64,000 bases of DNA from an uncultured Bacilli bacterium (GTDB lineage: Bacteria; Bacillota_I; Bacilli_A; RF39; UBA660). The DNA lies in NCBI GenBank assembly GCA_947625505.1, contig CANQON010000001.1:28950-92949 (forward strand), in the 5' to 3' direction. The position numbers and the translations under genes were made by a program. The notes beneath the pieces are model-generated. The model did no database searches, was not told where the DNA came from, and saw only the letters and a program-made list of their open reading frames with translations. Positions 3,323 through 63,835 of the stretch are shown in pieces (position 1 is the stretch's first letter; each line of letters starts with the position of its first letter).

Positions 3323-3333
3323 TATGATATAAT
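3323..3333 (+). promoter_or_regulatory. extended -10 promoter (TGaTATAAT) for the rimP-nusA-infB operon
   Basis: TGATATAAT begins at 3325 and lies about 60 nt upstream of the rimP ATG. Confidence 0.5.
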
Positions 3334-39032: not shown

Positions 39033-40778
39033 ATGATAATTAAAGGTCAAAAAATAGATGGACGTTATCAAATAATTCGTACCATAGGTGAAGGTGGTAT
39101 GGCTAATGTCTATTTGGCATATGATACAATCTTAGATCGTGAAGTAGCTGTTAAAATATTACGTGGTGATTTAGCTAGTGATGAAAAATTTGTAAAAAGA
39201 TTTCAACGAGAAGCTAAAGCAGCTAGTTCCCTAAATCATCCAAATATTGTAGAAATGTATGATGTAGGAGAAGATGATGGTAACTATTTTATCGTTATGG
39301 AATATGTTAATGGTAAAACTTTAAAAAGTTTAATTAAGAAAAGGGGAGCTTTATCATTATCAGAAACCATTGATATTATGTTACAATTAACAAGTGGTAT
39401 AGCTTGTGCACATGAGAGTTTTATTATTCATCGTGATATTAAACCACAAAATGTTATGATTTTAGAAGATGGAAGAGTTAAAATTACTGACTTTGGTATT
39501 GCTGTAGCGTTAAATAGTACGGAGTTAACGCAAACAAATTCTGTTATGGGATCAGTACATTATTTGCCTCCAGAACAAGCTAATGGAAATACAGCTACTG
39601 TTAAAAGTGATATTTATTCTTTAGGTATTTTAATGTATGAGTTATTAACAGGTAAGTTACCATTTAAAGGTGATAATGCTGTTGAGATAGCTATTAAACA
39701 GATGAAAGATCCGATTCCAAGTATCGTTGAGGAAAATGCTAATATACCTCAAAGTGTTGAGAATGTTGTTTTAAAAGCGTGTGCTAAAAACCCAAATAAT
39801 CGTTATGATTCTGTTGCTGAAATGCATGAAGATTTAAAAACGGTATTATCTGAAGCACGTAAAGATGAGAAAAAAGTTGTTTATGAATACCCTGAAGGAG
39901 ATTTAGAAACAAATAATAAAGATAACGATGATGAAAATAAAACAATTGTTATGGATAAAATTCAAGATACCGACATAGAGGTTAAGGAAGGTAAGAGTGA
40001 AGTGAAGAAATTTAAATGGTTAGTTGCTATTGTAGGACTTGTTACTTCAATAGTTGTAATTGGATTATTAGTTGCCTTTTTTGGATTATTAAATTCTGCT
40101 AAAACGAAATCTGTTGTTTTACCAGAAATTCATGGTAAAACTAAAGAAGCAGCAGGAGAATCTTTAGATGATATTGGAGTATATTATTCTTGGGAGTCAG
40201 CACCTAGTAGTGATGTTGAAGAAGGATTAATCATTGGATATCGTGATCATAAAGAAGGATCTAAAGTTAAAGAAGGTAGTTCGGTTGTTGTTACCGTATC
40301 TAGTGGTTTAGGCGGAATTGAAATAGGAGATTACTATCGTAGAAATGTCGATGTTGTTAAAATAGAATTAGAAAATGCAGGTTTAAAAGTTGTTTTAACA
40401 TCTAAGAAGATATCTAAAGAAGAATACATGAAAGATCATCCAGAAGAAAAAGAAGAACCATTTGAAGGTATGGTTTTATCTCAAAGTGTTGAAAAAGGAA
40501 GCCGTTTAGATGCAGGACGTCCTATAGAACTTGTATATGCTACTTTGATAACTGTATATCCTGATTTCTTAGATGGAACTTATGATAAAGCTAAAATTCA
40601 AACATTCTGTGATGACAATAAGATTACTTGTCAATTTGAAACAACACCTTCTGATAAACCTGCAGGAACAATATTATCACAAGGACGTTCAGCAGGTACA
40701 GAAGTAAAAGAAGGAGTAACCTTAAGAATTGTTATAGCAGGAGCTCCTACTTCTGATGATGATACATCTGAGGAATAA
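39033..40778 (+). CDS. prkC: PASTA-domain Ser/Thr protein kinase PrkC
   Basis: The Hanks kinase core (HRDIKPQN, DFGIA, SVHYLPPE) is followed by one TM helix and about 3 extracellular PASTA repeats. Confidence 0.9.
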   Translation: MIIKGQKIDGRYQIIRTIGEGGMANVYLAYDTILDREVAVKILRGDLASDEKFVKRFQREAKAASSLNHPNIVEMYDVGEDDGNYFIVMEYVNGKTLKSLIKKRGALSLSETIDIMLQLTSGIACAHESFIIHRDIKPQNVMILEDGRVKITDFGIAVALNSTELTQTNSVMGSVHYLPPEQANGNTATVKSDIYSLGILMYELLTGKLPFKGDNAVEIAIKQMKDPIPSIVEENANIPQSVENVVLKACAKNPNNRYDSVAEMHEDLKTVLSEARKDEKKVVYEYPEGDLETNNKDNDDENKTIVMDKIQDTDIEVKEGKSEVKKFKWLVAIVGLVTSIVVIGLLVAFFGLLNSAKTKSVVLPEIHGKTKEAAGESLDDIGVYYSWESAPSSDVEEGLIIGYRDHKEGSKVKEGSSVVVTVSSGLGGIEIGDYYRRNVDVVKIELENAGLKVVLTSKKISKEEYMKDHPEEKEEPFEGMVLSQSVEKGSRLDAGRPIELVYATLITVYPDFLDGTYDKAKIQTFCDDNKITCQFETTPSDKPAGTILSQGRSAGTEVKEGVTLRIVIAGAPTSDDDTSEE

Positions 40779-46494: not shown

Positions 46495-47988
46495 ATGAAA
46501 CCATTAGTATTATGTATTATGGATGGTGTAGGAGAGAGAAAAGAATTACATGGAAATGCTGTAAAACAAGCTGATACTCCTATTTTAGATATGTTAAAAG
46601 GTAAATATGGATATAGTTTATTAGAAGCAAGTGGAACAAAAGTAGGACTACCAGAAGGCCAAATGGGTAATAGTGAAGTAGGTCATATGAATATTGGTGC
46701 AGGTAGAATTATTTATCAACCACTAGAACTAATCAATAACGCTATTAAAGATCAAACTTTTTACCAAAATGAAGAATTATTAAGAGCTATTAATCATGTA
46801 AAAAGATATAATTCAAAATTACATATTATGGGATTAATTAGTGATGGGGGAGTACACTCACATATTAATCATTTATTAGCTATATTAGATATGTGTAAAT
46901 TAAATAATGTTAGTAATATATATTTACATTTGTGTACAGATGGAAGAGATGTTGATCCTCATAGCGCCTATAGTTATATAGCTCGAGTTGAAGATAAGTT
47001 AAGAGAAGTAGGAGGCATTATTGCAACTATAAGTGGTAGATATTATACTATGGATCGTGATAATAATTATGATCGTTTACAAAAAGGGTATGATGCTATT
47101 GTTTATGGTAATGGATTAAGTAGTAATTCTCCTAAAGAAGCTATTGATATGAGTTATCAAAATGATATTAGTGATGAATTTATTGTACCAACAGTCTTTA
47201 CTGATAAAGGTACAGTAGATGATAATGATGCTTTTATTACTTTTAACTTCCGTAAAGATCGTTTACGTGAATTATTTACAGCTTTAACTAATCCTAATTT
47301 TAATGATATGCCTGTTAAAAAAATTAATAATTTATATGTACTTACGATGTTACCTGTTGTTGAATCTGTAATAGCGCCTCATGCTTTTGATGATCCAAAT
47401 CCTCATCATATATTAGGAGAAGTATTAGCTGATAATGGATTAAAACAATTACGTATTGCGGAAACAGAAAAGTATGCACATGTTACCTTCTTCTTTGATG
47501 GAGGAAAAGAAGTAGATTATCCAAATGAGAAGAAAATACTTATTCCTTCTCCTAAAGTAGCGACTTATGATTTAAAACCTGAAATGAGTGCTTATGAAGT
47601 AACAGAGAATTTAATTAATGAATTACCTTTCGTTGATGTTGTTATTTTAAATTTTGCTAATGGCGATATGGTAGGACATACAGGAGTATTTGATGCTGCT
47701 GTTAAAGCTGTGGAAGTTGTTGATGAATGTATTGGTAAAATATATGATAAAGTTGTTAGCTTAGAAGGTACTTTATTTATTATAGCTGATCATGGTAATA
47801 GTGATTATATGTTAGATGATGATGATAATGTTATAACAAGTCATTCAACTAGTTTAGTACCTTGTATTATTACTAAAGAGGGTATTAAATTAAAAAATGG
47901 TAAATTAGCAGATGTAGCGCCAACAATGTTACGTTTATTAAATATTGAGATACCTAGTGAAATGACAGGAGATGTCTTAATTGGCTAG
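46495..47988 (+). CDS. gpmI: 2,3-bisphosphoglycerate-independent phosphoglycerate mutase
   Basis: Catalytic and metal-binding motifs are all intact: IMDGVG, GNSEVGH, SDGGVHSH, TDGRDVDP, NGDMVGHTG and IIADHGNSD. Confidence 0.95.
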   Translation: MKPLVLCIMDGVGERKELHGNAVKQADTPILDMLKGKYGYSLLEASGTKVGLPEGQMGNSEVGHMNIGAGRIIYQPLELINNAIKDQTFYQNEELLRAINHVKRYNSKLHIMGLISDGGVHSHINHLLAILDMCKLNNVSNIYLHLCTDGRDVDPHSAYSYIARVEDKLREVGGIIATISGRYYTMDRDNNYDRLQKGYDAIVYGNGLSSNSPKEAIDMSYQNDISDEFIVPTVFTDKGTVDDNDAFITFNFRKDRLRELFTALTNPNFNDMPVKKINNLYVLTMLPVVESVIAPHAFDDPNPHHILGEVLADNGLKQLRIAETEKYAHVTFFFDGGKEVDYPNEKKILIPSPKVATYDLKPEMSAYEVTENLINELPFVDVVILNFANGDMVGHTGVFDAAVKAVEVVDECIGKIYDKVVSLEGTLFIIADHGNSDYMLDDDDNVITSHSTSLVPCIITKEGIKLKNGKLADVAPTMLRLLNIEIPSEMTGDVLIG

Positions 47989-49736: not shown

Positions 49737-51329
49737 ATGAACGAAAAGAAAACAGTATTATTTTTAATGAATGGATTTGGAACTGAATCCGCTAAATCAT
49801 TTGAAGTATATTCTAAAGAAGTAATGCCTACTTTTGATACACTTATTAACGCTTATCCATTTAAATTATTATTTGCATCAGGTGAATTAATAGGCGCTAA
49901 TAAAAATGAAGTATCAAATTTTAAGACAGGATACTATAACTTTAGTAGTTTTGGACATCCAAGTAAAAAAGAAGATGTTTTAAATAGTAAAATAGCTGCT
50001 AATGAATTTAATAATAATCCTGTTATCAATAATAGTATTGATATAGCTGTTCAAAATAAGTCTAATTTACACATTGTATTTACTTTAGGTGATAAGGTAA
50101 ATAATGAAAGATATGAACATTTAAAACAATATTTAGAATTAGCTGTATCTAAAAACGTTGGTAAGATATATGTACACCTTATTTTAGGTGATAGTAGTAC
50201 AAGAGGATTAAAAATAGGAAGTCAATGCTTAACTAATTTTAAAAATAGAGTTTTACGTTATTATCCTCAAATTATTGTTGCATCACTAGCAGGAAGAATG
50301 TATGTAAAAAATGGATCTGCTAATGATATTGCTAACTATTATCGTATGATGGTTAGTGCCGTAGGAGAAATATGGACAGATTACGAAGCAACTTTAACAA
50401 AAAAATATGAACACGGTATGAATGATGATAATATGATTGCATTCTTAACTATACGTGAAAATATGTTACTTGAAGGTGACAGCATCTTTATGTTTAACTA
50501 TAGTAACAATATAGCAAGACAATTTTTAGATGTTGTTATAAATCCAAAAAAGTATTTTCCAACTAGTAATGTACCAGAAAATATTCATATTAACTCTTTA
50601 TTTACTATTAATAATTTGCCTCAAATACCACGTGCTTTTGAGGATGCTGTACCAGATACTTATTTATTAGATAAAATACCTGATACAAAAAAAGTCTTAA
50701 TTATGGCTACTAAAGAGCGTATACCTTATGTTAGTAAAACATTAAATGGATTTAGGCCTTCATTTAAAAGCAATGTTAGTGTATGGCCAATAGAAGATCG
50801 TAAAAAGAGATTTCAAAGCATTAGTCAGTATTTAGCTGCCTATATTAATCAAGATATATATGATTTAATAATCGTTGATTGTGAATTATATGATGAAGGT
50901 GCTGATGAACGTACGATAGCTAAAGTAATAGATAACATGAAAGAATTAGATAAATGTTTAAATATTACTTATCATCGTGCTATGGATAAGAATTATCGTT
51001 TAATAGCAACTTCATTATATGGAATTAAACAAAGATTTAAGTTAACAGCAACTATGGAATTAGTTGATTTATCACAAAAGACCCCATTCTTACTTGTTGA
51101 TAAAGAAATAAGAAGATTAGATATAGTCTTTAAAAATGAGGGAACATTTATTGATGTAGCTCGTTTAATTGCGATATCTTTTGGTTCTCAAATGTCAAAT
51201 AACTTAATTCAAATAGAAACAGTCGAAGAAAAGAAAAGTAGTAACAAAAAGAAATATATTATATTAGCTATACCAATAGCTATCTTATTAATATTGGTTA
51301 TAGCGTATATTTATATGATGTATTTTTAA
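49737..51329 (+). CDS. catalytically degenerate iPGM (GpmI) paralogue with a C-terminal TM anchor; first gene of the T7SS-like locus
   Basis: It aligns along its length with the window's own GpmI: VLFLMNGFGTE vs VLCIMDGVGER; LLFASGE vs LLEASGT; LHIVFTLGD…KIYVHLILGD vs LHIMGLISDGG…NIYLHLCTDGRD; LIIVDCELYDEGADERTIAKVIDNMKELDKC vs VVILNFANGDMVGHTGVFDAAVKAVEVVDEC. The catalytic Ser motif and the metal ligands DH/GH/DHG are lost. It ends with a hydrophobic helix, KKYIILAIPIAILLILVIAYIYMMYF. Confidence 0.7.
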   Translation: MNEKKTVLFLMNGFGTESAKSFEVYSKEVMPTFDTLINAYPFKLLFASGELIGANKNEVSNFKTGYYNFSSFGHPSKKEDVLNSKIAANEFNNNPVINNSIDIAVQNKSNLHIVFTLGDKVNNERYEHLKQYLELAVSKNVGKIYVHLILGDSSTRGLKIGSQCLTNFKNRVLRYYPQIIVASLAGRMYVKNGSANDIANYYRMMVSAVGEIWTDYEATLTKKYEHGMNDDNMIAFLTIRENMLLEGDSIFMFNYSNNIARQFLDVVINPKKYFPTSNVPENIHINSLFTINNLPQIPRAFEDAVPDTYLLDKIPDTKKVLIMATKERIPYVSKTLNGFRPSFKSNVSVWPIEDRKKRFQSISQYLAAYINQDIYDLIIVDCELYDEGADERTIAKVIDNMKELDKCLNITYHRAMDKNYRLIATSLYGIKQRFKLTATMELVDLSQKTPFLLVDKEIRRLDIVFKNEGTFIDVARLIAISFGSQMSNNLIQIETVEEKKSSNKKKYIILAIPIAILLILVIAYIYMMYF

Positions 51330-51411: not shown

Positions 51412-51663
51412 ATGAATAAAGTTCTTGTTAATATATACGTACCTCTTATTGAACAAGAATACAATTTATTTATCCCAGTTAATCGTAAGATTGGCTTGGT
51501 GAAAAAAATAATTGGTCATTCAATTGTTGAATTATCTGACGGAAATTATCAAATAGAGGGCTACTTCAACCTTTATAATAAAACGACAAATCGTGTTTAT
51601 GATGATGATACTTATGTAATAAATACCGATATTCGTAATGGTTCTAAACTTATCTTATTGTAG
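51412..51663 (+). CDS. YukD/EsaB-like ubiquitin-fold T7SS protein
   Basis: 83 aa. The YukD/EsaB pattern is present (VLVNIYVP…YNLFIPVN.KIG.V…NTDIRNGSKLILL). RBS GAGGGTGAG precedes the ATG. Confidence 0.7.
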   Translation: MNKVLVNIYVPLIEQEYNLFIPVNRKIGLVKKIIGHSIVELSDGNYQIEGYFNLYNKTTNRVYDDDTYVINTDIRNGSKLILL

Positions 51664-51679
51664 TTAGGAAAGGTGAGTT

Positions 51680-51958
51680 ATGGATAATATTTATATTGAT
51701 TATAATCAAGGAGCTACTTTAGGTCATAAGATTCAAGGTGAATCTACAGACTTAAAAAATCTTCTTGATCGATTAAGGGAAATACAAGAGCAATTAAAAC
51801 CAATGCTTAATGATAGTAATGATGAAAAATATGTAAAAACAATTGATGGTGAATTAAAAGTTATGGAAAAATTAGCTGAGACAATAGATGAAACAGGAAG
51901 CTTCTTAGTTAATGTTTCTAATGCTTATCAAGATGCTGCTGAAAGCATTCATAGTTAG
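51680..51958 (+). CDS. small Esx/WXG100-superfamily-like helical protein lacking the WxG motif
   Basis: 92 aa, predicted helical hairpin, no Trp. It is directly upstream of a bona fide WxG gene within a T7SS locus. RBS AAAGGTGA precedes the ATG. Confidence 0.5.
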   Translation: MDNIYIDYNQGATLGHKIQGESTDLKNLLDRLREIQEQLKPMLNDSNDEKYVKTIDGELKVMEKLAETIDETGSFLVNVSNAYQDAAESIHS

Positions 51959-51966
51959 GTGATATT

Positions 51967-52227
51967 ATGGATAATAAATTAACTTATTCAGAAATAATTT
52001 CATTAGCTGGAAACTTAAAAATGGTTTCTGGACAAATAGAAGATTTACTATCAGTTTTAAAAGAACAAGACTATGCAAGAATTGGTGACGGAGGAGATGT
52101 TTGGACAGGAGATGCCGCATTAATGGCACGCCAAACATTCGATGAATTAGTTACTCGCTTTCCAGAATTTATTAATTCAATAAATGATTACGCTGACTAT
52201 TTAGTTAATGTCGTAGCGTCAAGATAG
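51967..52227 (+). CDS. WXG100 (EsxA/YukE-like) protein
   Basis: 86 aa with a central W-x-G (GGDVWTGDAALMARQTF) between two predicted helices. RBS AGGTGA precedes the ATG. Confidence 0.7.
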   Translation: MDNKLTYSEIISLAGNLKMVSGQIEDLLSVLKEQDYARIGDGGDVWTGDAALMARQTFDELVTRFPEFINSINDYADYLVNVVASR

Positions 52228-52243
52228 TTGTAGGAGGAAATAT

Positions 52244-53191
52244 ATGAATAATGAGGTTGGAGAAAAATTTTTACCAATAGGCTCAGTAGTAATGTTAAAG
52301 GGTGGTACTAAAAGAGCAATGATTACAGGATTCTGTTCTGTAGCCCAAGATGATGCACAAAAAACATATGATTATAGTGGATGTATATATCCTGAAGGAT
52401 ATATATCATCTAATCAAGTATGCTTATTTGATCATGATCAAATTGAAAAAGTATATTTTGTAGGATATGAAGACGAAGAAGAAAAAGCTTTTAAAGAAAA
52501 ATTAAAAACTTTAGTAGAAGCAAATAATAATCAAGCAAATGGAGGAGTAGTACCTAGTACTGTGCCAACAATTCCAGATATGAGTGTTCCTACACAACCA
52601 AGTACGATGGCAGTACCAGGAGTACCAAGTGTACCTGAGATGCCAGGTATGATACCACAAGCACCTGTACCAGATATGGGTATGCCAATGCAACCAAGTA
52701 CACCAGTAATGTCGACAGTACCAAGTGTACCTGAAATGCCAGGCATGATGCCACAAGCACCAGTACCAGATATGGGTATGCCAGTGCAACCAAGTATGCC
52801 AGTAATGCCAACAGCACCAAGTGTGCCTGAAATGCCAGGCATGATGCCACAAGCACCTGTACCAGATATGGGTATGCCAGTGCAACCAAGTACACCAGTA
52901 ATGCCAACAGTACCAAGTGTGCCTGAAATGCCAGGCATGATACCACAAGCACCAGTACCAGATATGGGTATGCCAGTGCAACCAAGTACACCAGTAATGC
53001 CAACAGTACCAAGTGTACCTGAAATGCCAAGTATGATGCCACAAGTACCACAAGCGCCAATGCCTATGGCTCCAGAAGTACCTCCAATGGCAGGACTTGC
53101 TCCATCACCATTTGGAATGCCAACTTCTCAACCACAAGTACCTGGTATGCCAACAGTTCCACCTGTTGATCCAAATAACCAAAATATGTAA
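52244..53191 (+). CDS. DUF4176-like N-terminal domain fused to a Pro/Met-rich 32-aa tandem-repeat tail
   Basis: The N-terminus FLPIGSVVMLKGGTKRAMITG…YDYSGCIYPEGY…VYFVGYEDEEE resembles the T7SS-associated DUF4176. Residues about 128–270 are 4.5 copies of PSVPEMPGM[IM]PQAPVPDMGMP[VM]QPS[TM]PVM[PS]T[VA]. RBS AGGAGG precedes the ATG. Confidence 0.55.
   Translation: MNNEVGEKFLPIGSVVMLKGGTKRAMITGFCSVAQDDAQKTYDYSGCIYPEGYISSNQVCLFDHDQIEKVYFVGYEDEEEKAFKEKLKTLVEANNNQANGGVVPSTVPTIPDMSVPTQPSTMAVPGVPSVPEMPGMIPQAPVPDMGMPMQPSTPVMSTVPSVPEMPGMMPQAPVPDMGMPVQPSMPVMPTAPSVPEMPGMMPQAPVPDMGMPVQPSTPVMPTVPSVPEMPGMIPQAPVPDMGMPVQPSTPVMPTVPSVPEMPSMMPQVPQAPMPMAPEVPPMAGLAPSPFGMPTSQPQVPGMPTVPPVDPNNQNM
52560..53060 (+). 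repeat. in-frame 96-bp tandem repeat of about 4.5 near-identical copies (unit starts 52625, 52721, 52817, 52913, 53009) plus a degenerate leading copy
   Basis: The unit ccaagtgtacctgaaatgccaggcatgatgccacaagcacc[ta]gtaccagatatgggtatgcca[ag]tgcaaccaagta… repeats directly with only a few substitutions per copy. Confidence 0.9.
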
Positions 53192-53194
53192 ACG

Positions 53195-53222
53195 AAAAGT
53201 ATTTTATAAATACTTTTTTTTT
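53195..53222 (+). terminator. intrinsic terminator between the substrate module and essC-1
   Basis: AAAGTATTT-tat-AAATACTTT followed by T10. Confidence 0.75.
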
Positions 53223-53230
53223 GTTATAAT
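53222..53230 (+). promoter_or_regulatory. extended -10 promoter (TGtTATAAT) for essC-1
   Basis: TTGTTATAAT lies 37 nt upstream of the essC-1 ATG. Confidence 0.45.
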
Positions 53231-53266
53231 AGATATAGTATGTTAAAAGAATAAGGATGGGATAGT

Positions 53267-56200
53267 ATGTTAGTATCATTAATTAAAAGTACGAGAATCA
53301 ATACGTTAACTTTACCTAATAGAATTATAGGTAACTATTGGGTTACAGATTATGATGATAATAATAATGAACAAAATTTAATTAGTATTGAAGCTCAAGA
53401 TGGGGCATGGCGTCTTATAAGTAATGATGATATTGCTGTTGTAGAAAATAATGCTGAAAGAGATTATGTCTATTTAAAAGAATATGCTTTTTACTTATTA
53501 AAATTTAAGCAAACTAATACATACTTACTATTATATTGTTCTCCTGTCTATGATAAAACTTTTAAAAGATATTATATTGGTTCTAATCAAGAGATTACTA
53601 TTGGTAATAATAATGCTAATGCCATATACTATGATAATTCGGGTGTTGATAATGTACATGCTAAATTAGCTTACTATTCAGGTAGTTTTATTGTTACTGA
53701 TAATAATAGTCGTTTAGGAGTATATGTTAATAAAATACGTGTTCAAAAACAACAAAAGTTAGAAAATGGGGATATTATATTTATTGCGGGTTTAAAAATA
53801 ATTGTTTTAATTGAAGATAATGTTCCAATTATTATTGTTAATAATCCTGATGGATTAGTTAGATGTCAATCTAATGTTTTAAAAGCTCAAGAGTTAAAAA
53901 CAATAGAAAATCCTAGTGAGTTATTAAATACAGTTGATGATCCTGATGATGTTTTAGATGTGGATTTATATAAAGAAGATGATTATTTTCATAAAAAACC
54001 ACGTTTTAAGTCTAATGTTAAGACATTAGATATTCAAATAGATGCTCCTCCTAGTGCTGAAAAGAGTGAAGAGATGCCTGTTATGTTAACATTAGGGCCT
54101 ATGGTAACAATGGGAGTATCATCAGCTGTTATGAGTATTACAGCTGTTACTAATGTTTTAGCGCATAATAGTACTTGGGGACAAGCTATGCCTGCTATTG
54201 CGATAGGTACAGCTATGTTAGGTAGTTTAATATTATGGCCTTCTTTAACAAGACGTTATGAAACAAAAAGAAAACAACGTAAAGAAGAAATAAGACAATT
54301 AAAGTATAGTCAATATATTGAAGGTAAACGTCAAACAATAGTTGAAACTATTCGTACTCAAAGACAAATTTTAGCTGAAAATAATTTATCTTTAGAAGAG
54401 TGTCAACAAGTTATTTTAAAGCGTAAAATGAATTTATGGGAACGTAAATATGGTGATGAAGATTTCTTAGTTGTTAACTTAGGATCTGGTGTATTACCTA
54501 TGGATATTAATATTCAATATCCTGAAGAACATTTTTCTTTAGAAGATGATAATTTAAGAGAAATGGTTATGCGTTTAGGTAGTGAACCTAAAAACCTAGC
54601 TGATGTTCCTTTAACTATTTCTTTATATGAAAAAAATATTTTAGCGCTTATTGGTACTAAAAAATTAAATAAATCATATATTGATCGTTTAATTTTACAA
54701 TTAGTAACATTCCATAGTTATGATGAACTAAAGATTGTTGTCTTTACTTCTAAAAATAATGAAGAGAGTTGGGATTATATAAAGATTCTTCCTCATTGTT
54801 GGAGCAATGATAAATCAATACGTTTCTTTGGTACAACAAATGATGAGATAAAAGAAGTATGTTATCATTTAGATCGTGAATTATCTTCACGTAGAGATGA
54901 AGAAGAACAAGTAAAAAGTAATTCACCTTATTATTTAATTATTACAGACTCTATTAAAACAATACGTAGTTTTGATGTTATTAAAGATATATTAGGATTA
55001 CAAGAAAATTATGGCTTTGGATTATTAATTATGAATGATCGCGTATCTAATTTACCTACAGAGTGTAAGGCTTTTATTAATGTATCAGAAAAGAATTCTG
55101 ACTTATTTGAGAATGTCTTAAATACTAATCATTTAAACTTCCGTATTGATTTTGATACGAATATTAATATGTATGAATGTGCGAAAGTATTAGCTAATAT
55201 GCCTATTGAAATAGGTGATGATAGTGAAGCTTTACCTAATAAGTATGGTTTCTTAGAAATGTATAATGTAGGTAAAGTAGAACAGTTAAACTCACTTAAT
55301 AGATGGCAAAAGAATAATCCTATTTTAACCTTACAAGCTCAAGTTGGAGTTGGTAAGGGAGGAGAAAAAATAAATCTTGATTTACATGAAAAATTTCATG
55401 GACCACATGGATTAGTAGCAGGATCTACAGGTAGTGGTAAATCAGAATTTATTATTACTTATATCTTATCAATGGCTGTTAACTATCATCCTAATGAAGT
55501 TCAATTTATTTTAATAGATTATAAAGGAGGAGGTCTAGCTGGAGCTTTTGAAAATAAAGAAACAGGTATTAGACTACCTCATTTAGCAGGGACAATTACT
55601 AACCTTGATACTAGTGAGATGAATCGTGCTTTAGCATCTATTGAATCAGAATTAAAAAGAAGACAAAGAATTTTTAATGAAGCTAGAGAGTTATCTGGTG
55701 AAAGTACGATTGATATATATAAATATCAAAAATTATATCGTAATGGAGTAGTTAAAGAACCTATAGCGCACTTATTTATCATTAGTGATGAGTTTGCTGA
55801 ATTAAAGAGTCAACAACCTGAATTCATGCAACAACTTATCAGTACAGCGCGTATAGGAAGATCTTTAGGTGTTCACCTTATTTTAGCAACGCAGAAACCT
55901 GCTGGTATTGTTGATAATCAAATATGGAGTAATACGCGTTTTAGAGTATGCTTACGTGTTCAAGAAAAAAGTGATAGTAATGATGTTATTAAATGCCCAG
56001 ATGCTGCTTTAATTAAACAGACAGGTCGTTTCTATTTACAAGTAGGATATAATGAAATATTTGAATTAGGACAATCAGCATGGTGTGGAGGTAAATATTA
56101 TCCTGCTGAAAAATTAAAGAAAACAGTTGATACTTCAATTGACTTTGTCGATAATGTAGGCTTTGTTATTAAGTCTGCTGAAAAAGATAAACATAAAGAT

Positions 56201-57901
56201 AGTGATAAAGCTCAAGGTGAAGAATTAAATAATGTTGTTGCATATTTATCTAATATAGCTGCAACCGAAGGAATTAGTGTTAAACAATTATGGTTAGATC
56301 GTATTCCTGATTATATTACAGTAGCTGCTTTAATGCGTAAATATGATATTAAGCCAAGTAAGAATTATATCGCGCCTATTATTGGTGAATATGATGATCC
56401 ATCTAATCAAAGACAAGATATTTTACGTATTCCTTTTGTAAATGATGGAAATGGTATTGTTTATGGAGTTAGTGGAAGTGGTAAAGAAAATTTAATTAGT
56501 TCAATGATTTTCTCTTCAATGTACCTATATACTCCAGAAGAATTAAATTATTATGTTCTAGATTTTGGATCTGAAACATTAAAAGTATTTGATAGTTGTC
56601 CATTAGTAGGAGATGTTTTACTTGCTAATGATAAAGATAAAATAGCTAATTTATTTAAGTTATTATCTAATAAAGTAGAAGAACGTAAAAAGTTATTTGC
56701 TCCTTATGGAGGAAGCTATGAATACTATATGGAAAATAGTGATAACAAATTGCCTGTTATTGTTGTAATAATAAATAACTTTGAAGTATATGATGATAGT
56801 TATCTTACATATGAAGAGTTGTTATTATCACTTACAAGAGAAGGATCTAAATATGGTATTTACTTCTTCTTATCTGTTAATACACCTAATGGTGTAAGAT
56901 TCAAAATGCGTCAAAACTTTAATCAAGAATTCGTTTTACAACAAAATAATGAAAATGATTATACAGCTATTTTGGGTAATGTTAAAAAGAATTATCCATC
57001 TAAGATTAAGGGTAGGGGTATTATTAAGAAAAATGATATTATATATGAATTCCAAACAGCATACCCTGCACCTAAAAATAAAGAAAGTTATACCTTTATT
57101 AAGGAACAATGCGAGACATGCGCTAAAGAATTTGATAAAGTGGCAGAACATGTTCCAACCTTACCTGATCATATAGCTTTCAAAGATGTAAAACACGAAT
57201 TAGGTAAGAGTGACGCTATGATAATTGGTTATAATAAAGAGACATTAGATATTGTAAAATATGACTTTACACATAAACCAGTTACTCTTATTACTGCTCA
57301 AGACATTAGTATGGCTAGTCACTTTGTTAGACCATTAATTAAACAATTTGCATCTTTAAATAAATGTGATGTCTTAGTTATTGATGCCGAAGAATTACAA
57401 TTAACAATGGGTATTGGTAACCTTAAATATGTTGATGTTAACTTTGATGATAATTTTACTAAATTAGAAAAATTTATTAATGATTATTATCAACAATATC
57501 TTGATAGTGATTATGATAGACACATATTTGAAAATGAAAGACCTGCAACAATATTTATTTGTGGCTTAGAAAGCTTTAGAAATAAATTAGGTATTGAAAA
57601 CAAAAATAAATTTGGCCAACTTTTTGAACATGCTAAAGATTTAGGTATCGTTAACTTTGTTATAGTTGAAAGTGCTGATAAACTTAAGAAATTTGAGACA
57701 GAAAGTTGGTATAAATCAGCTGTTAATAATACAACAGGTATTTGGGTAGGAAATGGTGTTTCTGAACAATTTATCTTGAAGTTAACTAAAGTAACAAAAG
57801 AAATAAGAGAAGATATTCCAGATAACTTCTGTTATGTAATAGCTAGAGGTAAACCAATTCTTACACAATTTATTGAAAGTTTTGATATTTTAAATGATTA
57901 G
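53267..57901 (+). CDS. essC: T7SS FtsK/SpoIIIE-family ATPase EssC/YukB, paralogue 1 (1544 aa)
   Basis: N-terminal FHA-like domains are followed by 2 TM helices (about aa 270–330) and three ATPase domains. D1 Walker A is GPHGLVAGSTGSGKSEFIITYILSMAVNYHP, with …ILATQKP…GRFYLQVGY. D2 is YGVSGSGKENL. D3 is degenerate. Confidence 0.9.
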   Translation: MLVSLIKSTRINTLTLPNRIIGNYWVTDYDDNNNEQNLISIEAQDGAWRLISNDDIAVVENNAERDYVYLKEYAFYLLKFKQTNTYLLLYCSPVYDKTFKRYYIGSNQEITIGNNNANAIYYDNSGVDNVHAKLAYYSGSFIVTDNNSRLGVYVNKIRVQKQQKLENGDIIFIAGLKIIVLIEDNVPIIIVNNPDGLVRCQSNVLKAQELKTIENPSELLNTVDDPDDVLDVDLYKEDDYFHKKPRFKSNVKTLDIQIDAPPSAEKSEEMPVMLTLGPMVTMGVSSAVMSITAVTNVLAHNSTWGQAMPAIAIGTAMLGSLILWPSLTRRYETKRKQRKEEIRQLKYSQYIEGKRQTIVETIRTQRQILAENNLSLEECQQVILKRKMNLWERKYGDEDFLVVNLGSGVLPMDINIQYPEEHFSLEDDNLREMVMRLGSEPKNLADVPLTISLYEKNILALIGTKKLNKSYIDRLILQLVTFHSYDELKIVVFTSKNNEESWDYIKILPHCWSNDKSIRFFGTTNDEIKEVCYHLDRELSSRRDEEEQVKSNSPYYLIITDSIKTIRSFDVIKDILGLQENYGFGLLIMNDRVSNLPTECKAFINVSEKNSDLFENVLNTNHLNFRIDFDTNINMYECAKVLANMPIEIGDDSEALPNKYGFLEMYNVGKVEQLNSLNRWQKNNPILTLQAQVGVGKGGEKINLDLHEKFHGPHGLVAGSTGSGKSEFIITYILSMAVNYHPNEVQFILIDYKGGGLAGAFENKETGIRLPHLAGTITNLDTSEMNRALASIESELKRRQRIFNEARELSGESTIDIYKYQKLYRNGVVKEPIAHLFIISDEFAELKSQQPEFMQQLISTARIGRSLGVHLILATQKPAGIVDNQIWSNTRFRVCLRVQEKSDSNDVIKCPDAALIKQTGRFYLQVGYNEIFELGQSAWCGGKYYPAEKLKKTVDTSIDFVDNVGFVIKSAEKDKHKDSDKAQGEELNNVVAYLSNIAATEGISVKQLWLDRIPDYITVAALMRKYDIKPSKNYIAPIIGEYDDPSNQRQDILRIPFVNDGNGIVYGVSGSGKENLISSMIFSSMYLYTPEELNYYVLDFGSETLKVFDSCPLVGDVLLANDKDKIANLFKLLSNKVEERKKLFAPYGGSYEYYMENSDNKLPVIVVIINNFEVYDDSYLTYEELLLSLTREGSKYGIYFFLSVNTPNGVRFKMRQNFNQEFVLQQNNENDYTAILGNVKKNYPSKIKGRGIIKKNDIIYEFQTAYPAPKNKESYTFIKEQCETCAKEFDKVAEHVPTLPDHIAFKDVKHELGKSDAMIIGYNKETLDIVKYDFTHKPVTLITAQDISMASHFVRPLIKQFASLNKCDVLVIDAEELQLTMGIGNLKYVDVNFDDNFTKLEKFINDYYQQYLDSDYDRHIFENERPATIFICGLESFRNKLGIENKNKFGQLFEHAKDLGIVNFVIVESADKLKKFETESWYKSAVNNTTGIWVGNGVSEQFILKLTKVTKEIREDIPDNFCYVIARGKPILTQFIESFDILND

Positions 57902-57904
57902 AAA

Positions 57905-57931
57905 AAAGATAATTATATTATCTTTTTTTAT
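57905..57931 (+). terminator. intrinsic terminator between essC-1 and essC-2
   Basis: AAGATAAT-tat-ATTATCTT followed by T8. Confidence 0.75.
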
Positions 57932-57962
57932 TGGTTAAATAGTGTATTTTTGCTTTATATTA

Positions 57963-57971
57963 TGGTATAAT
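57963..57971 (+). promoter_or_regulatory. extended -10 promoter (TGgTATAAT) for essC-2
   Basis: TATGGTATAAT lies about 30 nt upstream of the essC-2 start. Confidence 0.45.
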
Positions 57972-57999
57972 ATTTGATGAGAATAGGGGTCGTGTGATT

Positions 58000-60900
58000 A
58001 TGCTGATATCAATAATGGATAACGACAAATTGACGAAGTTTAATTTACCTGAAAAAGTAGAAGAAACTTTCCTTATTAAGTATCGCCCTGTCAATTCTAA
58101 TATTGACAAGGATATTAATGTGGAATCATCTAATGGTAAATGGTATTTAAAAAGTAATGGTAGTATTGATGTTGCTATCGATAATAAAATTATTGATAAA
58201 GCAGTACTAGAAGAATATAATCAGTATTTTCTATCAGTAAGTGGACAAAAAATATACTCTATCCTATATTGTTCTCCTTCAAATGAAGAAAAACAAAAAT
58301 ATAAATTTAATACGGATCATATAACAATAGGTAAGGATACTAATTCTACTATTTGTTATCAAAATAATTTAATGGCACCTACACATGCAACAATATATTG
58401 TCAAAATAATACTTGGTTTATCAAAAGTAGTGATTTAGATTGGGCTCGTGTTTATGTTAATAATGTACGTGAATATAATGCTAAGTTACATGTAGGGGAT
58501 GTTATTTTTATAAATGGGTTAAAGATTATTTGGATGAATAGTTTTATCGTAATTAATAATCCTAAAGGAGAAGCTAATATATCTAATATTTTGACACCTT
58601 ATGCTGAAGAAAATGTTGATAATACTAAATATTCTGAAATATCAGAGGATGAAGAGAATGTTCCTTTATATGATGAAAAAGAATATTTTAGTCATGTTCC
58701 TAGACTTCGTACAGTATTTGAAACAGATACTGTAGAGATTGATGAACCTCCAATGTCTCAAAATGTTGAAGATCAACCTTTTATTGCAACAATTGGTACT
58801 TCACTTATGATGCTTGCTTCAACATTAGTTATGGGCTCATCTATATTAAATAGTATTAGTAATGGAACTGCTAATATCATAATGATTATTCCACAAGCAG
58901 CTATGATTATTGCAATGATTATTGCAACGATTGTTCTTCCTAAATATCTTCGTAAATATCAACGTTCTAAAAGAGACGAAAAAGAAGCTTTAAGGCAAAA
59001 AAAGTATACCAATTATTTAAATGATAAAGAAGCTAAAATCAAATCTTTATTAAAAGCAAAACAACAAGTTTTAAATGAAAACTTTCCTATGCTAAATGAA
59101 GCTATTGTTACTGTAAATAATCGTACTAGAAGACTATGGGAAAAAGAAATAAAGGATGATGATTTCTTAACAATACGTTTAGGCTTAGGTAATATGCCAT
59201 CTAATATTACGATTAATGCTGCTAAAGAAAGATTTACCCTAGATGATGATAATTTAAGAGCTCGTGTTCATGCAATTGTAGATCACTCTAAAATACTTGA
59301 AAATGTTCCTGTTACTTTTTCCTTTGCTGAAAAGAATATTTCAGCTATTATAAGTGAAGGACATTATAATAAGAAATATATTGATGGCTTAATCCTTCAG
59401 ATTTTAGCATATCATAGTCCTGCTGATTTAAAGATTGTCTTACTTACTAATTATGCTAATACGAATAGATGGAGTTATTTAAAGTTTGCTCCACATTGTT
59501 GGACTGATGACCGAGAGATGCGTTTTTATGCTGATGATATGGAAGAAATGAAGAATATATCATCATATCTTGAAAACGAATTAAATAAAAGAAAAGCATT
59601 ATTAGAAAATAATGATAATAAAGATATTAAAAGACAAGATGGATTTAAAAACTTTTCACCATATTACTTAATCATTACTGATGACTATCGTAATACTAAG
59701 AATGTTCAGTTTTTATCAACATTCTTACACGAAGAAGAAAACTATGGTTTTTCTTTATTACTAGTTGATGATTCTATGCGTAATATGCCTAATGAATGTG
59801 ATACATTTATTGATGTTTTAGATAAAAATAGTTGTATCTTTCAAAAGGAATTAAGTAGTCAAACACAAACGAATTTTATTAATGAGTATGTTGATTCTGT
59901 TAATATGGATGATATAGTCTTTAAGTTAGCTAATATTCCTGTTGCATCTAGAGAAATGATGAGTTTATTACCTAAATCTATTTCTTTCTTAGAAATGTAT
60001 AATGTAGGTAATATCAAACAATTAAATATTTTAAATAGATGGAAGACAAGTAATCCTGTTATTACACTTGAAGTTCCTGTTGGAGTACATCCTAGTGGAG
60101 AATTATTTAAATTAAATCTACATGAAAAATTTCATGGACCACATGGTTTAATTGCAGGATCTACAGGTAGTGGTAAATCCGAATTTATTATTACTTACAT
60201 CTTATCTATGGCTATTAACTATCATCCTGATGATGTTCAATTTGTATTAATAGACTATAAAGGTGGAGGCTTAGCAGGAGCATTTGAAAACCGTGAAAGT
60301 GGAGTTCAAATACCTCATTTAGCAGGTACGATAACTAATTTAGATACTAATGAAATGAATCGTACTTTAGTATCTATTCAAAGTGAGTTAAAACGTCGTC
60401 AAGCTAAATTTAATGAAGCTCGTGATCGCTTAGATGAAAGTACGATTGATATTTATAAATATCAGAGATATTATCATGAAGGATTACTAGATGAACCTAT
60501 TGCACATTTATTTATTATATGTGATGAGTTTGCGGAATTAAAGAGTCAACAACCTGAATTCATGCAACAACTTATTAGTACATCACGTATAGGTCGTTCT
60601 TTAGGAGTTCACCTTATTTTAGCAACGCAGAAACCTACGGGAGTTGTTAATGATCAAATATGGTCTAACTCAAGATTTAAAGTATGTTTAAAAGTACAGA
60701 GTCGTAGTGATAGTATGGAAATGTTAAAGCGTCCTGAAGCGGCATCAATTAAAGATACAGGACGTTTCTATTTACAAGTAGGCTATGATGAATTATTTGA
60801 ATTAGGTCAATCAGCATGGTGTGGTGCTAAATATATTCCAACTGAACGTATAAAGAAAAAACAAGATGATTCAATAACTTTTGTAGATAATACTGGATAT

Positions 60901-62595
60901 GTAATTAAAAATGTTAATGATATTCATCGTAAAGAAGATTCTGTATCAAAAGGGGAACAATTAACAAATATTGTTAAATACTTATCAGAGTTAGCTGAAA
61001 AAGAGAATTATCATCCACATCGTTTATGGTTAAATAAAATACCTGATGTTATTTATGTAGATGAGTTAAAGAAAAAATATAATTATAAACCAAAACGTTT
61101 TGTTATGGATTCTATAATAGGGGAGTATGATGATCCATCTAATCAAAAACAAGATGTTGTTAAATTAAACTTATCTAGTGATGGCAATGCTTTAATATAT
61201 GGCTTACCTACTACAGGTAAAGAAAACTTATTAGCAACCATTATCTATTCAATGGTAACAGATCATAGTGTAGATGAATTAAATATGTATATTATGGATT
61301 TTGGAGCTGAAACATTACGTATGTTTCAAAATATTCCTCATATAGGTGATTTAGCTTACATTGAAGATGAAGAAAAAATAATTAAATTATTAGAATTAAT
61401 CGATAATGAAATAGAATTACGTAAGAATTTATTTGTTGACTATGCAGGTAGTTATATTGATTATTGTACGAATAGTGGAAATACTTTACCTACAATTGTT
61501 ATAATGATTAATGGTTATGAAAACTTCCAAGAAAATTTTGGTAAATATGAAGATAGTCTTTATACACTTATTCGTGAAAGTAATAAATATGGTATTTATT
61601 TTATAGTAGCGACATCTGTTAATAGTTGTATTCGTAGTCGTTTACTTCAAAACTTTAATAATCGTTTATCTATGCAACTATCTGATCCAATGGATTATCG
61701 TATTTTACTTAATGCTCCAAAAGATTTAAATCCTGCTCATAATTATGGACGTGGTATTGTTCGTATTAATGATACAGGTTTTGAATTCCAATCAGCATTT
61801 ATAACAGATAAAAATAGAATAGGTGACGCTATTAAGATATTAAGTGCACGTTTAAGTAATTATTATAAACGTCGTGCTCCTAAGATACCAATTTTACCTA
61901 AAAAGGTAATTGATAGTAGTTTACCAATACCTAAGTCATTAGATCAGGTACCTATTGGTGTATTAAAGAAGAATGTAGAACCTGCTTATTATGATTTTGA
62001 ACGTAGTAAATATACAACAATTGGTACTAATATCTTAGATGATAAATTGCCATTCTTTAATGCTTTATTACGTAAATTAAGTGCTATACCAAATTTAAGA
62101 ATTAAAGTAATTGATGCTTATCAAGCATATCAACCACAGATACCGAATGTTACTGTTTATAGTAAAGATTTTGATCAAGTTATTAACATGATGTATCAAG
62201 AACTTGATATTGAAGAAAAACAAAATTATAAAACATTATATTTTGTAGTTGGTATTGGACAGTTAAAAGTAAGATTAAGTAAAGAAGCTCAAACTAAATA
62301 TATGACTATTTTAGGATCATTAAAGAATTTTATTAATAGTTATTTTATCGCTATTGATAGTATTCAAGCTTTACGAAGTCTTGAGTTAGATAGTTGGTAT
62401 CGTAATAATGTCTCTAGATCTGATGGTATATGGTTAGGTGATGGCTTTGGTAGTCAAAGTATTATTAAAGTTTCTAACTTTACTTTAGAAGATCGTAAAG
62501 TAAGCTATCCAGAAATTGCTTATATTGCTAATAAGGGAAAATATGAATTTGTTAAATATATGATTGAAGAGGAGACTGATCAAGATGAGGAATAA
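58000..62595 (+). CDS. essC: T7SS FtsK/SpoIIIE-family ATPase EssC/YukB, paralogue 2 (about 1532 aa)
   Basis: Same architecture as paralogue 1. D1 is nearly identical ([52 protein letters not shown]), while the FHA region, the D2 P-loop (GLPTTGKEN) and the C-terminal D3 have diverged. RBS TAGGGGT precedes the ATG at 58000, which aligns with the paralogue-1 N-terminus (MLVSLI vs MLISIM). Confidence 0.9.
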   Translation: [1531 protein letters not shown]

Positions 62596-62839
62596 AGTAT
62601 TAGTCGAAATTACTGTTCCCGAAATAGATCAAACATATAATGCTTTTTTACCTATTAATAAAAAAGTAGGGAATATACTAGTCTTGATTACTAAAGCTAT
62701 AAGTGATATGAGTAATAATAATTATCAAGTATCAACTACTAATGCTTTATATAATCGTATAACAGGTGAAAAATATAACACAGATGATTTAATACGTGAG
62801 ACAAATATTAGAAATGGTACTAAATTAGTATTATTATAG
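62585..62839 (+). CDS. second YukD/EsaB-like ubiquitin-fold protein, translationally coupled to essC-2
   Basis: It is a paralogue of 51412–51663 (VLVEITVPEIDQTYNAFLPINKKVG…ETNIRNGTKLVLL). Its start overlaps the essC-2 stop by 11 nt. RBS GAGGAG lies inside essC-2. Confidence 0.65.
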   Translation: MRNKVLVEITVPEIDQTYNAFLPINKKVGNILVLITKAISDMSNNNYQVSTTNALYNRITGEKYNTDDLIRETNIRNGTKLVLL

Positions 62840-62893
62840 AAGAATTATATAATTCTTCTTTTTTTACAAAAAAAATAAGGTAAAACCTTATTT
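62838..62893. terminator. convergent pair of intrinsic terminators
   Basis: + strand: GAAGAATTAT/ATAATTCTTC palindrome followed by T7. – strand: AATAAGGT-aaa-ACCTTATT with T8 on the complementary strand. Confidence 0.8.
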
Positions 62894-63199
62894 TATGATT
62901 TGTATTCTTTCTTTAATTACGGTTGCATCAATTTTATCAAAAAGATCACAAACTTCTAAAGAAGTATTATTCATTTCAACAATGCTAGTATTAACATAGT
63001 CTTTAATAAGCACACAATTACCTTTAACTTTACGTATTGCCTCAGGCAAAGCATTTAAATAAGTTCGGTAACTAAATCCTGATGGAATATCTAATCCTTC
63101 AGCTATATTAATAGCTGAAATTAATTCATCGATACCATCATCAATAACAGGCATAAAATAAGATTTTAAGCCATTCGTATTAATAAGTAATTTACTCAT
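62888..63199 (-). CDS. small helical protein (about 103 aa) in the minus-strand Esx-like cluster
   Basis: It overlaps the upstream gene by 8 nt (coupled). It is acidic and predicted alpha-helical. No WxG. Confidence 0.5.
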   Translation of the reverse strand: MSKLLINTNGLKSYFMPVIDDGIDELISAINIAEGLDIPSGFSYRTYLNALPEAIRKVKGNCVLIKDYVNTSIVEMNNTSLEVCDLFDKIDATVIKERIQIIK

Positions 63200-63506
63200 T
63201 ATTTATTTCTACCTTTCGCATAGTCGTTTCAATTTTCTCAGCTGTTTCTTGAAATAGCATACCGAATCTTTTTAAGTTATTATATAAGTTTATATATATT
63301 TCTTTTTCTTGCGTGACTTGAGCGATATATCTATCTGCATCATCACCTTGCCAACCATCTTCACGAGTATTTAAATTACTAATATAAGTAAAAATTGTTT
63401 CAATTATTTCTTCATAGTCATCTGCTAAAGCTACGATATCTTGACCACAAGATTTTATTTTTTTAGTATCACAATCAATACTAGTCATTATTTCTTGTTC
63501 CTCCAT
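63192..63506 (-). CDS. WXG100-like protein (104 aa) with a central WxG
   Basis: …TREDGWQGDDADRYIAQV… is a central W-Q-G between two helical segments, the WXG100 (EsxA/Lap-like) hallmark. Confidence 0.55.
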   Translation of the reverse strand: MEEQEIMTSIDCDTKKIKSCGQDIVALADDYEEIIETIFTYISNLNTREDGWQGDDADRYIAQVTQEKEIYINLYNNLKRFGMLFQETAEKIETTMRKVEINNE

Positions 63507-63520
63507 ATAATAGTAGCATC

Positions 63521-63835
63521 CTATATTTTATCAGCATTTAAATCCAATTCATGAAGACGTGTTATTTCAATATTTAGTTGAGCAATACGACTATTTATCG
63601 TTGGTATTATTTTAGTAATTAGAATATTGTAGATATTATTAATAGAATCAACACTATCTTTTAATTTACTATTATCAGCAATATCACTATCAATACGGTA
63701 GTATTTACCTAATTGATTAGTGGCACTTTCAATATTCGTTGTACTAGTATTTAAGTGTGAACAAATACTTTTTATATTATCCATTAATTTATAATATCTA
63801 TTACGTTCATATTCTAATTCTGATATTAAAGACAT
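63521..63835 (-). CDS. small helical protein (104 aa), Esx/Lap-like helper candidate
   Basis: RBS GGAGG is 6 nt upstream of the ATG. Coiled-coil-like composition and the same size class as its neighbours. Confidence 0.5.
   Translation of the reverse strand: MSLISELEYERNRYYKLMDNIKSICSHLNTSTTNIESATNQLGKYYRIDSDIADNSKLKDSVDSINNIYNILITKIIPTINSRIAQLNIEITRLHELDLNADKI

Follow-up and report, generated by a model that had tools for sequence, protein, structure and literature searches.

A 64,000-nucleotide stretch of DNA from an uncultured Bacilli bacterium (RF39, UBA660; assembly GCA_947625505.1, contig CANQON010000001.1, positions 28,950 to 92,949 of the forward strand; hereafter the window) carries two full-length essC genes, which encode type VII secretion system (T7SS) ATPases, arranged head-to-tail. 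The locus is probably composed of two distinct compact type VII modules lying side by side and separately transcribed, and not of a single system with a duplicated motor. We favor two modules over one because the two EssC proteins fall into separate clades, because each module type is found alone elsewhere, and because each has its own gene for a ubiquitin-like protein as well as its own set of WXG100-like genes. EssC (EccC) is the motor and the substrate gate of type VII secretion, and the choice of substrates by its C-terminal domains is still debated. Two complete and divergent EssC proteins with their own partners, but with one DUF4176 gene between them, would make a useful comparative system for telling motor-specific parts from shareable ones.

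EssC loci for comparison came from a scan of one genome per species (54 loci), a metagenome scan (23 loci) and look-ups of closer homologues (5 loci). Individual loci are referred to by L-numbers; L055 and L056 are contigs of the window species that reach beyond the 3′ end of the window. All open reading frames (ORFs) of the loci were clustered in order to compare gene neighborhoods (clusters c0, c2, c6-c10, c13, c34, and c35), and a bootstrapped neighbor-joining tree was built from 50 full-length EssC proteins.

Divergence of the two EssC proteins

The first gene, essC1 (53267-57901, plus strand), is an uninterrupted ORF encoding a full-length EssC of 1544 amino acids (aa), hereafter E1. The second, essC2 (58000-62595, plus strand), encodes a full-length EssC of a different clade (E2; 1531 aa). 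Its ORF is open from 57994, and the start is most likely the ATG at 58000, since the alignment with E1 begins there, the ribosome-binding site (RBS) is well spaced, and the public gene call agrees. E1 and E2 score 1005.8 and 973 bits against NCBIfam TIGR03928 (curated cut-off, 778.4 bits), with residues ~231-1529 matched, so that the initial reading of the locus from sequence only, which saw two complete EssC genes head-to-tail, is borne out. Pfam detects an FHA domain in both (E = 5e-11 in E1 and 2e-5 in E2) and two FtsK_SpoIIIE stretches in each, with matches to both the EccCa-like and the EccCb-like halves. Each protein also has two hydrophobic 19-mers (~280-328 in E1, 263-313 in E2). For both proteins, the nearest solved relative is Bacillus subtilis YukB (9qks, E = 1.5e-123 for E1). 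The two proteins thus resemble the EssC/YukB proteins of T7SSb from Staphylococcus aureus, B. subtilis, and Geobacillus thermodenitrificans in having an N-terminal FHA region, two transmembrane (TM) helices, and three FtsK-like domains (D1 to D3). The resemblance extends to the canonical Walker motifs of D1, a non-catalytic Walker B in D2, and a D3 that lacks a P-loop (PMC4925161).

E1 and E2 are 42% identical overall, in an alignment that runs from residue 1. Domain by domain, identity is 30-34% in the FHA region, 23% in the TM region, 37% in D0, 75% in D1, 42% in D2, and 24% in D3. The strong divergence of the FHA region, D2, and D3 described by the sequence-only reading is therefore confirmed. 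Its statement that D1 is almost identical in the two copies captures a real gradient of divergence but overstates it, as D1 identity is only 75%. Moreover, this value is the background of the whole family (E1 is 73-83% identical in D1 to any other member) and gives no indication of gene conversion. The longest exact nucleotide match between essC1 and essC2 within the genome is 41 nt, compared with up to 44 nt between genomes; the use of identical codons is slightly higher within the genome (0.73 vs. 0.52-0.66). Gene conversion or concerted evolution in D1 was set aside as unsupported, given that exact matches are no longer within the genome than between genomes.

Both EssC proteins carry the D1 Walker A motif GSTGSGKS and the Walker B motif FII[SC]DEFAE, which are invariant in 26 relatives, and D1 is predicted from these motifs to be catalytically competent in both. 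In D2, the P-loop reads GSGKE in one copy and TTGKE in the other (PTTGKE in E2), exactly as first reported, and G-x4-G-K is kept in both. The glutamate that follows the D2 lysine, and a Walker B that lacks the acidic pair (INN[FY]E), are found throughout this group of gut-Bacilli EssC proteins, and D3 lacks a P-loop in all gut-Bacilli relatives compared. This agrees with published accounts in which the D2 domain of EssC is non-catalytic and D3 of the staphylococcal protein lacks ATP-binding motifs (PMC4925161). A conserved D1, the GKE motif of D2, and a D3 without a P-loop are therefore family-wide traits and do not mark specialization in either paralogue, contrary to the proposal that they set these two copies apart. 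A D3 identity of only 24%, on the other hand, makes different substrate preferences plausible.

In the tree, E1 and E2 are placed in different clades, both of which have 100% bootstrap support and include loci with a single EssC. The abutting tandem occurs in the window species, where three independent assemblies show it (the window itself, L055, and L056), in L001, and in L081, whose essC2 (60% identical) directly follows sequence for the C-terminal D3 of an E1-like gene. Its recurrence in three independent assemblies and in other species indicates that it is no assembly artefact. These observations bear directly on another explanation of the tandem pair, namely that it arose by a recent local duplication or by collapse or expansion during assembly. 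Nothing but the tandem arrangement itself speaks for this origin, and it can hardly be correct in view of the 42% aa identity (far from the >95% expected of a recent assembly-collapsed duplication), a synonymous divergence (dS) between the copies of ~0.8, the well-supported separate clades, and the same junction in assemblies from different samples and in other species. The sequence-only reading had likewise argued against a recent duplication. A truncated "orphan" essC type was also ruled out: E2 aligns from residue 1, has both TM segments, is 75% identical to E1 in D1, and shares no long identical nucleotide tracts with it.

Composition and probable history of the two modules

Module 1 (51412-57901) comprises a gene for a ubiquitin-like protein, two WXG100-like genes, a DUF4176 gene, and essC1 with its own promoter, all on the plus strand. 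It opens with tsxB1 (51412-51663), which encodes an 83-aa protein of the EsaB/YukD type belonging to cluster c2. Sequence searches of TsxB1 against Pfam, NCBIfam, and PDB profiles returned nothing significant, and the only homologues found by sequence were close, unannotated relatives. Its AlphaFold2 model (mean predicted local distance difference test score of 90) has a ubiquitin-like beta-grasp fold, for which Foldseek ranks first the EccD ubiquitin-like domain from the ESX-5 complex (7npt_D8, E = 1.2e-5); that of EccD1 (4kv2) also matches. Cluster c2 adjoins EssC in 40 loci. Because the modeled fold matches EccD ubiquitin-like domains, we take c2 to be the EsaB/YukD/TsxB-type component. On this structural prediction, the TsxB proteins are ubiquitin-like proteins of the EsaB/YukD type by fold and not by sequence, with one copy per module.

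The next two genes encode a WXG100-like helical protein of cluster c0 without a WXG motif (51680-51958, 92 aa; PF06013, E = 0.0028; TIGR03930, E = 0.006) and a WXG100 protein with a W-T-G motif (51967-52227, 86 aa; PF06013, E = 7e-4; NF035934 ESAT6_2, E = 9e-7). The locus encodes several such small proteins (~90-105 aa); WXG motifs are present, and all WXG100 matches lie below the curated cut-offs. The gene directly upstream of the essC1 promoter (52244-53191) is the sole DUF4176 gene of the double locus; the domain occupies residues 9-83 (PF13780, E = 8e-29, above cut-off), followed by a Pro/Met-rich tail of near-perfect repeats (PVPDMGMPVQPS and so on). The length of the protein varies from 283 aa in L055 and 315 aa in the window to 449 aa in L011 and 526 aa in L015. 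DUF4176 proteins are reported to act as chaperones for T7SSb toxins (PMC12478183); the long-tailed protein is not of this short, stand-alone chaperone format. The same order of c2, two WXG genes, DUF4176, and EssC is shared by the window, L011, and L015, and the latter two have no second EssC within 10 kb.

Module 2 extends from 57963 to ~1 kb beyond the end of the window and includes a promoter, essC2, tsxB2, and six WXG100-like small genes that form a convergent operon. The public gene call places tsxB2 at 62585-62839 (plus strand; an 84-aa ubiquitin-like protein, 46-47% identical to TsxB1), with a start that overlaps the end of essC2 by 11 nt, an arrangement predicted to couple translation of the two genes. 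The three small helical genes nearest essC2 (62888-63835, minus strand; ~103 aa; clusters c6, c0, and c7) belong to a block that runs past the window end, and all six are seen in L055 and L056 on the strand opposite to essC2.

Stand-alone E2-type loci have a uniform composition: 12 out of 12 read EssC, c2, (c13), c9, c8, c10, c7, c0, c6, DUF4176 on one strand. In these loci too c2 overlaps EssC; one or two DUF4176 genes are present in all 12 and c13 in 11. Module 2 has small genes of these six families as well, with their order preserved but the whole block inverted. Profile-profile comparison (hhalign) relates c34 to c10 with 97% probability, a link for which BLASTP gives no match, and relates c9 (96.6%), c8 (89%), and c6 (65%) to the WXG100-like cluster c0. 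Links to c0 thus exist for c9, c8, c10/c34, and c6 (weak ones for c6 and c34), which makes four of the six families; a fifth belongs to c0 itself, its member in module 2 carrying a G-W-Q-G motif. No link to c0 was found for c7 by hhalign.

Cluster c13, which lies between the ubiquitin-like gene and the small-gene block (L005:14932-16596; also in L002, L003, L041, and L082), encodes a predicted lipoprotein of ~560 aa with a Cys-containing signal peptide and an HExxH motif, and has no Pfam or NCBIfam match. Module 2 is followed by two genes whose products, single-pass membrane proteins of 256 and 391 aa without annotation (L055:16987-18947), are the only membrane proteins in the vicinity. L011 and L015, both of which are without essC2, still encode homologues of the 391-aa protein (c35). 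A suspected glucosaminidase-like motif in this protein is unsupported by Pfam matches, NCBIfam, or a PDB sequence search and is at most a tentative lead.

The tandem arrangement is rare (~3-4 related species among ~80 EssC loci), and the 23 loci of the metagenome scan contained no further example. L011 and L015 are syntenic with the window 5′ of essC1 and have no essC2; only homologues of c34 and c35 are left there, in inverted orientation. In L010, essC1 is followed by a gene for a 669-aa protein with two internal repeats of ~310 aa (L010:5062-7071), and in L080 a homologue of this protein precedes essC2 (L080:1-1371; called as 261 aa, cut by the contig end, plus 170 aa). The 669-aa repeat protein has no family match, and the pattern suggests an E1-insert-E2 variant. 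Since the E1 tree puts L001 outside the group formed by the window, L010, L011, and L015, ancestral adjacency followed by later loss is the simplest history. We infer that the two modules already lay side by side in the ancestor of a small gut-Bacilli clade and that this arrangement was later broken in some lineages, with L011 and L015 left without module 2 and L010/L080 carrying the 669-aa insert.

A less favorable view of module 2 is that of a dispensable remnant in the course of being lost, whose essC2 contributes little or is redundant. We consider such an outcome improbable. Consistent with it are the absence of module 2 from the syntenic site in L011 and L015 (c34 and c35 homologues only), the loss of c13 and DUF4176 together with the inversion of the small-gene block, the unusual D2 P-loop (PTTGKE) and Walker B (ING/INA) of E2, and an in-frame TAA at codon 71 of essC2 in L081 (L081:903-1131), where the gene caller split the gene into 70 + 1454 aa. 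The L081 stop lies on a contig of 3.5x coverage and reflects either an error in sequencing or incipient loss. Against a remnant, the 4.6-kb ORF of essC2 stays open in DNA of 28% G+C in the window species, L001, and L080, the D1 catalytic motifs of E2 are intact, and the promoter, RBS, and overlapping tsxB2 are conserved.

Selection on the coding sequences speaks against decay as well. Compared with their L001 orthologues (78% identical to the window protein for E1 and 70% for E2), the ratio of nonsynonymous to synonymous substitution rates (dN/dS, Nei-Gojobori; approximate values, as dS is ~1) is 0.16 (E1) and 0.20 (E2) overall, falling to 0.05-0.06 in D1 (0.05 for E2) and rising to 0.32-0.33 in D3. 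These sequence comparisons indicate that purifying selection is acting on both essC1 and essC2. Together with the intact ORFs and D1 motifs, the ratios rule out a pseudogene in the window, in line with what had been read from the sequence at the outset.

Probable separate transcription and the independence of the modules

Between essC1 and essC2 lies a hairpin followed by a T-run (57903-57929, plus strand), with a perfect A/T-rich stem of 12 bp that contains a single G-C pair (-10.5 kcal/mol, z = -3.5). It is followed by an extended -10 box for essC2, TGGTATAAT (57963-57971, plus strand), and an RBS (GGGG, 57986-57989). A similar cassette precedes essC1 (53196-53230, plus strand), consisting of a hairpin (53196-53216), a T-run, and the -10 box TGTTATAAT (53222-53230). 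Downstream of module 2's plus-strand genes, back-to-back hairpins separate the convergent units (62838-62894): one at 62838-62859 with a U7 tract serves the plus strand and one at 62872-62894 the minus strand. The region 62825-62900 folds at -16.6 kcal/mol (z = -3.8).

Several of these signals are conserved across species. L001 keeps the hairpin downstream of essC1 with a different stem sequence whose arms are still complementary, and retains both the -10 box of essC2, as TGATATAAT, and its RBS. In L080, a promoter (TGTTATAAT) and RBS precede essC2 although essC1 is not immediately upstream, and the -10 core TTTTTTGTTATAAT 5′ of essC1 is invariant in five species. The extended -10 promoter first noted between the copies thus holds up, with conservation in L001 and L080. 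The accompanying "clean" intrinsic terminator survives in part: a hairpin and T-run are there and conserved in L001, but with one G-C pair the stem fails a scan that requires ≥3. Nothing in 51-64 kb passed that scan for G+C-rich terminators (the G+C content of the window is 25-34%). Because it came back empty, the terminator calls draw on conservation and folding. Furthermore, TGnTATAAT is not more frequent in the window than expected by chance (13 observed vs. 14.6 expected). Hairpins and -10 boxes of this kind are unconvincing by themselves; their conservation across species makes it a reasonable inference from the sequence that essC1 and essC2 are separate transcription units, and the earlier claim that each copy has its own promoter and terminator stands in the form of conserved promoter-like and terminator-like signals before each essC.

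Perfect A/T-rich hairpins accompanied by a T-run and TGnTATAAT recur at 53196-53230, 57903-57971, and 62838-62894, and this cassette could represent a partial terminator followed by a re-initiating promoter. Further TGnTATAAT sites in the window lie just 5′ of ORF starts at 3325, 10078, 20639, 37247, and 49702.

If the two modules are distinct, each EssC would assemble its own homo-oligomeric membrane motor, and its divergent D3 (and D2) would recognize the small helical proteins encoded in the same module. Two separately transcribed export routes may then operate in the cell. The sequence-only reading had instead started from one machine, with the EssC paralogues acting as hetero-oligomers or as alternative motors on shared components with two selectivity heads. 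We regard a shared machine as unlikely. The strongest argument in its favor is that one DUF4176 gene, in module 1, has to serve the whole double locus, whereas stand-alone E2-type modules always carry their own. The adjacency is also kept in at least 3 species at dS ~1, and D1 is well conserved between EssC1 and EssC2. This D1 similarity is, however, not above the family background, and, D3 aside, divergence is greatest in the regions expected to mediate oligomerization and membrane assembly (TM 23%, N-terminus 30%, D0 37%). The premise of one machine is further undercut by the separate clades, by the occurrence of each EssC type without the other elsewhere, by the ubiquitin-like partner and WXG100 set that each has to itself, and by the apparently separate transcription of essC1 and essC2.

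Several observations nevertheless weigh against two fully separate modules. Module 2 of the tandem lineage is without the DUF4176 gene found in 12 out of 12 stand-alone E2-type loci and without the c13 gene found in 11 out of 12. It may therefore borrow components from module 1, in which case the modules would not be fully independent. The "stand-alone" status of the other loci was read from 10-kb flanks and one pattern scan per metagenome-assembled genome (MAG), and MAGs are incomplete; in at least one related MAG, both EssC types are present on separate contigs (L010 and L041). The dN/dS values, as noted, are approximate at this level of divergence. Moreover, no membrane partner (EssA, EssB, or EsaA) was found nearby for either EssC. 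EssB (YukC; PF10140/TIGR03926), EsaA (YueB), and EssA (YueC) went undetected among the locus ORFs, ten other window ORFs, the 10 kb downstream (L055), and candidate neighbors in related loci. The ten other ORFs are housekeeping genes, such as those for PolC, DnaE, IleRS, IF-2, and a PASTA kinase. EssB and EsaA were likewise unseen among the 25 commonest families listed from a Pfam scan of 102 neighboring proteins, which is weak evidence of absence.

An intermediate arrangement would be a partly merged type VII system with a dual motor, representing a minimal subtype not yet described. In such a system, two full-length EssC motors with different D3 specificities would share the single DUF4176 protein and possibly envelope components, without EssA, EssB, or EsaA and perhaps in mixed assemblies. 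We hold this to be doubtful and retain two distinct modules as the probable organization of the locus.

Relation to known type VII systems and neighboring genes

The nearest analogy to two adjacent modules is provided by the mycobacterial ESX-1 to ESX-5 systems. Several complete systems coexist in one mycobacterial genome, each with its own EccC, ubiquitin-like element, Esx pair, and distinct substrates. The mycobacterial loci are scattered over the genome and far larger (EccB, D, E, and MycP), whereas the modules described here are minimal, directly abutting, and of the firmicute EssC type.

Relative to T7SSb, the locus differs in having two full-length tandem essC genes and in the lack of detectable essA, essB, and esaA in the window or 10 kb downstream; canonical T7SSb loci encode these three beside essC. 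More than one essC with different C-terminal domains per locus has been reported before. Streptococcus suis K56-WJ (EssC2/EssC3) and Enterococcus faecalis OG1RF (EssC2) have extra essC genes in the locus, with different C-terminal domains and their own small effector genes (PMC12558993; 10.1101/2020.05.11.077669). The notion that C-terminal EssC variants occur between strains and never within one locus, on which the sequence-only reading had leaned, is therefore not tenable. Those extra copies are truncated: the OG1RF copy lacks the TM region, and the S. suis copies are N-terminally truncated, with a truncated D1 identical to that of the full-length gene (PMC12558993; 10.1101/2020.05.11.077669). 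Here, in contrast, both copies are full-length, diverged throughout (75% identity in D1), and from different clades.

The essC1-essC4 variants of S. aureus and the essC variants of Listeria are allelic between strains and nearly identical over the N-terminal two-thirds (10.1101/252353; PMC4788903). As in those variants, D3 evolves fastest here and co-varies with neighboring small-protein genes, which fits the idea that D3 sets specificity (10.1101/252353; PMC4788903). Unlike them, both forms are present here in a single genome and differ over their entire length.

T7SSc-T7SSj share with this locus the trio of TsxA (WXG100), TsxB (ubiquitin-like), and TsxC (an ATPase of the EssC type) and likewise lack the membrane proteins of T7SSb; no described subtype has two TsxC genes (10.1101/2024.01.30.577966). 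The locus is set apart from these subtypes by gene content. None of their accessories (Ser/Thr kinase, PPM phosphatase, DUF6382-FHA, vWA, EspG-like, Ig-rich TsxI, or beta-propeller proteins) was found at the locus; the PASTA kinase (39033-40778) lies ~12 kb upstream among housekeeping genes, outside the cluster. T7SSc, d, e, f, and j were discounted because their signature Ser/Thr kinase, PPM phosphatase, and DUF6382-FHA proteins are not in the locus. T7SSg, which comprises two WXG100 proteins, TsgB, TsgC, and TsgL, was ruled out by the FHA domains of both EssC proteins (TsgC is without FHA) and by the lack of a match to the DUF5050 beta-propeller protein TsgL. The locus points to compact, EssC-centered modules in uncultured gut Bacilli without the canonical T7SSb membrane proteins, which would extend the known diversity of T7SS subtypes. 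Its practical value is limited, as the organism is uncultured and known here from sequence alone.

Elsewhere in the window, a 475-aa ORF without a Pfam match (25856-27283) and a 375-aa protein with a weak Fic/DOC match (36024-37151, E = 2e-5) are encoded among housekeeping genes (PolC, DnaE, and IleRS). Directly 5′ of module 1 lies a divergent second cofactor-independent phosphoglycerate mutase (iPGM; 49737-51329), which scores 107 bits against TIGR01307 (cut-off, 331). A normal iPGM is encoded 2 kb further upstream (46495-47988), and the pair is kept in L011 and L015. The divergent copy may act as a phosphatase or phosphotransferase connected with the cluster, or may have nothing to do with it.

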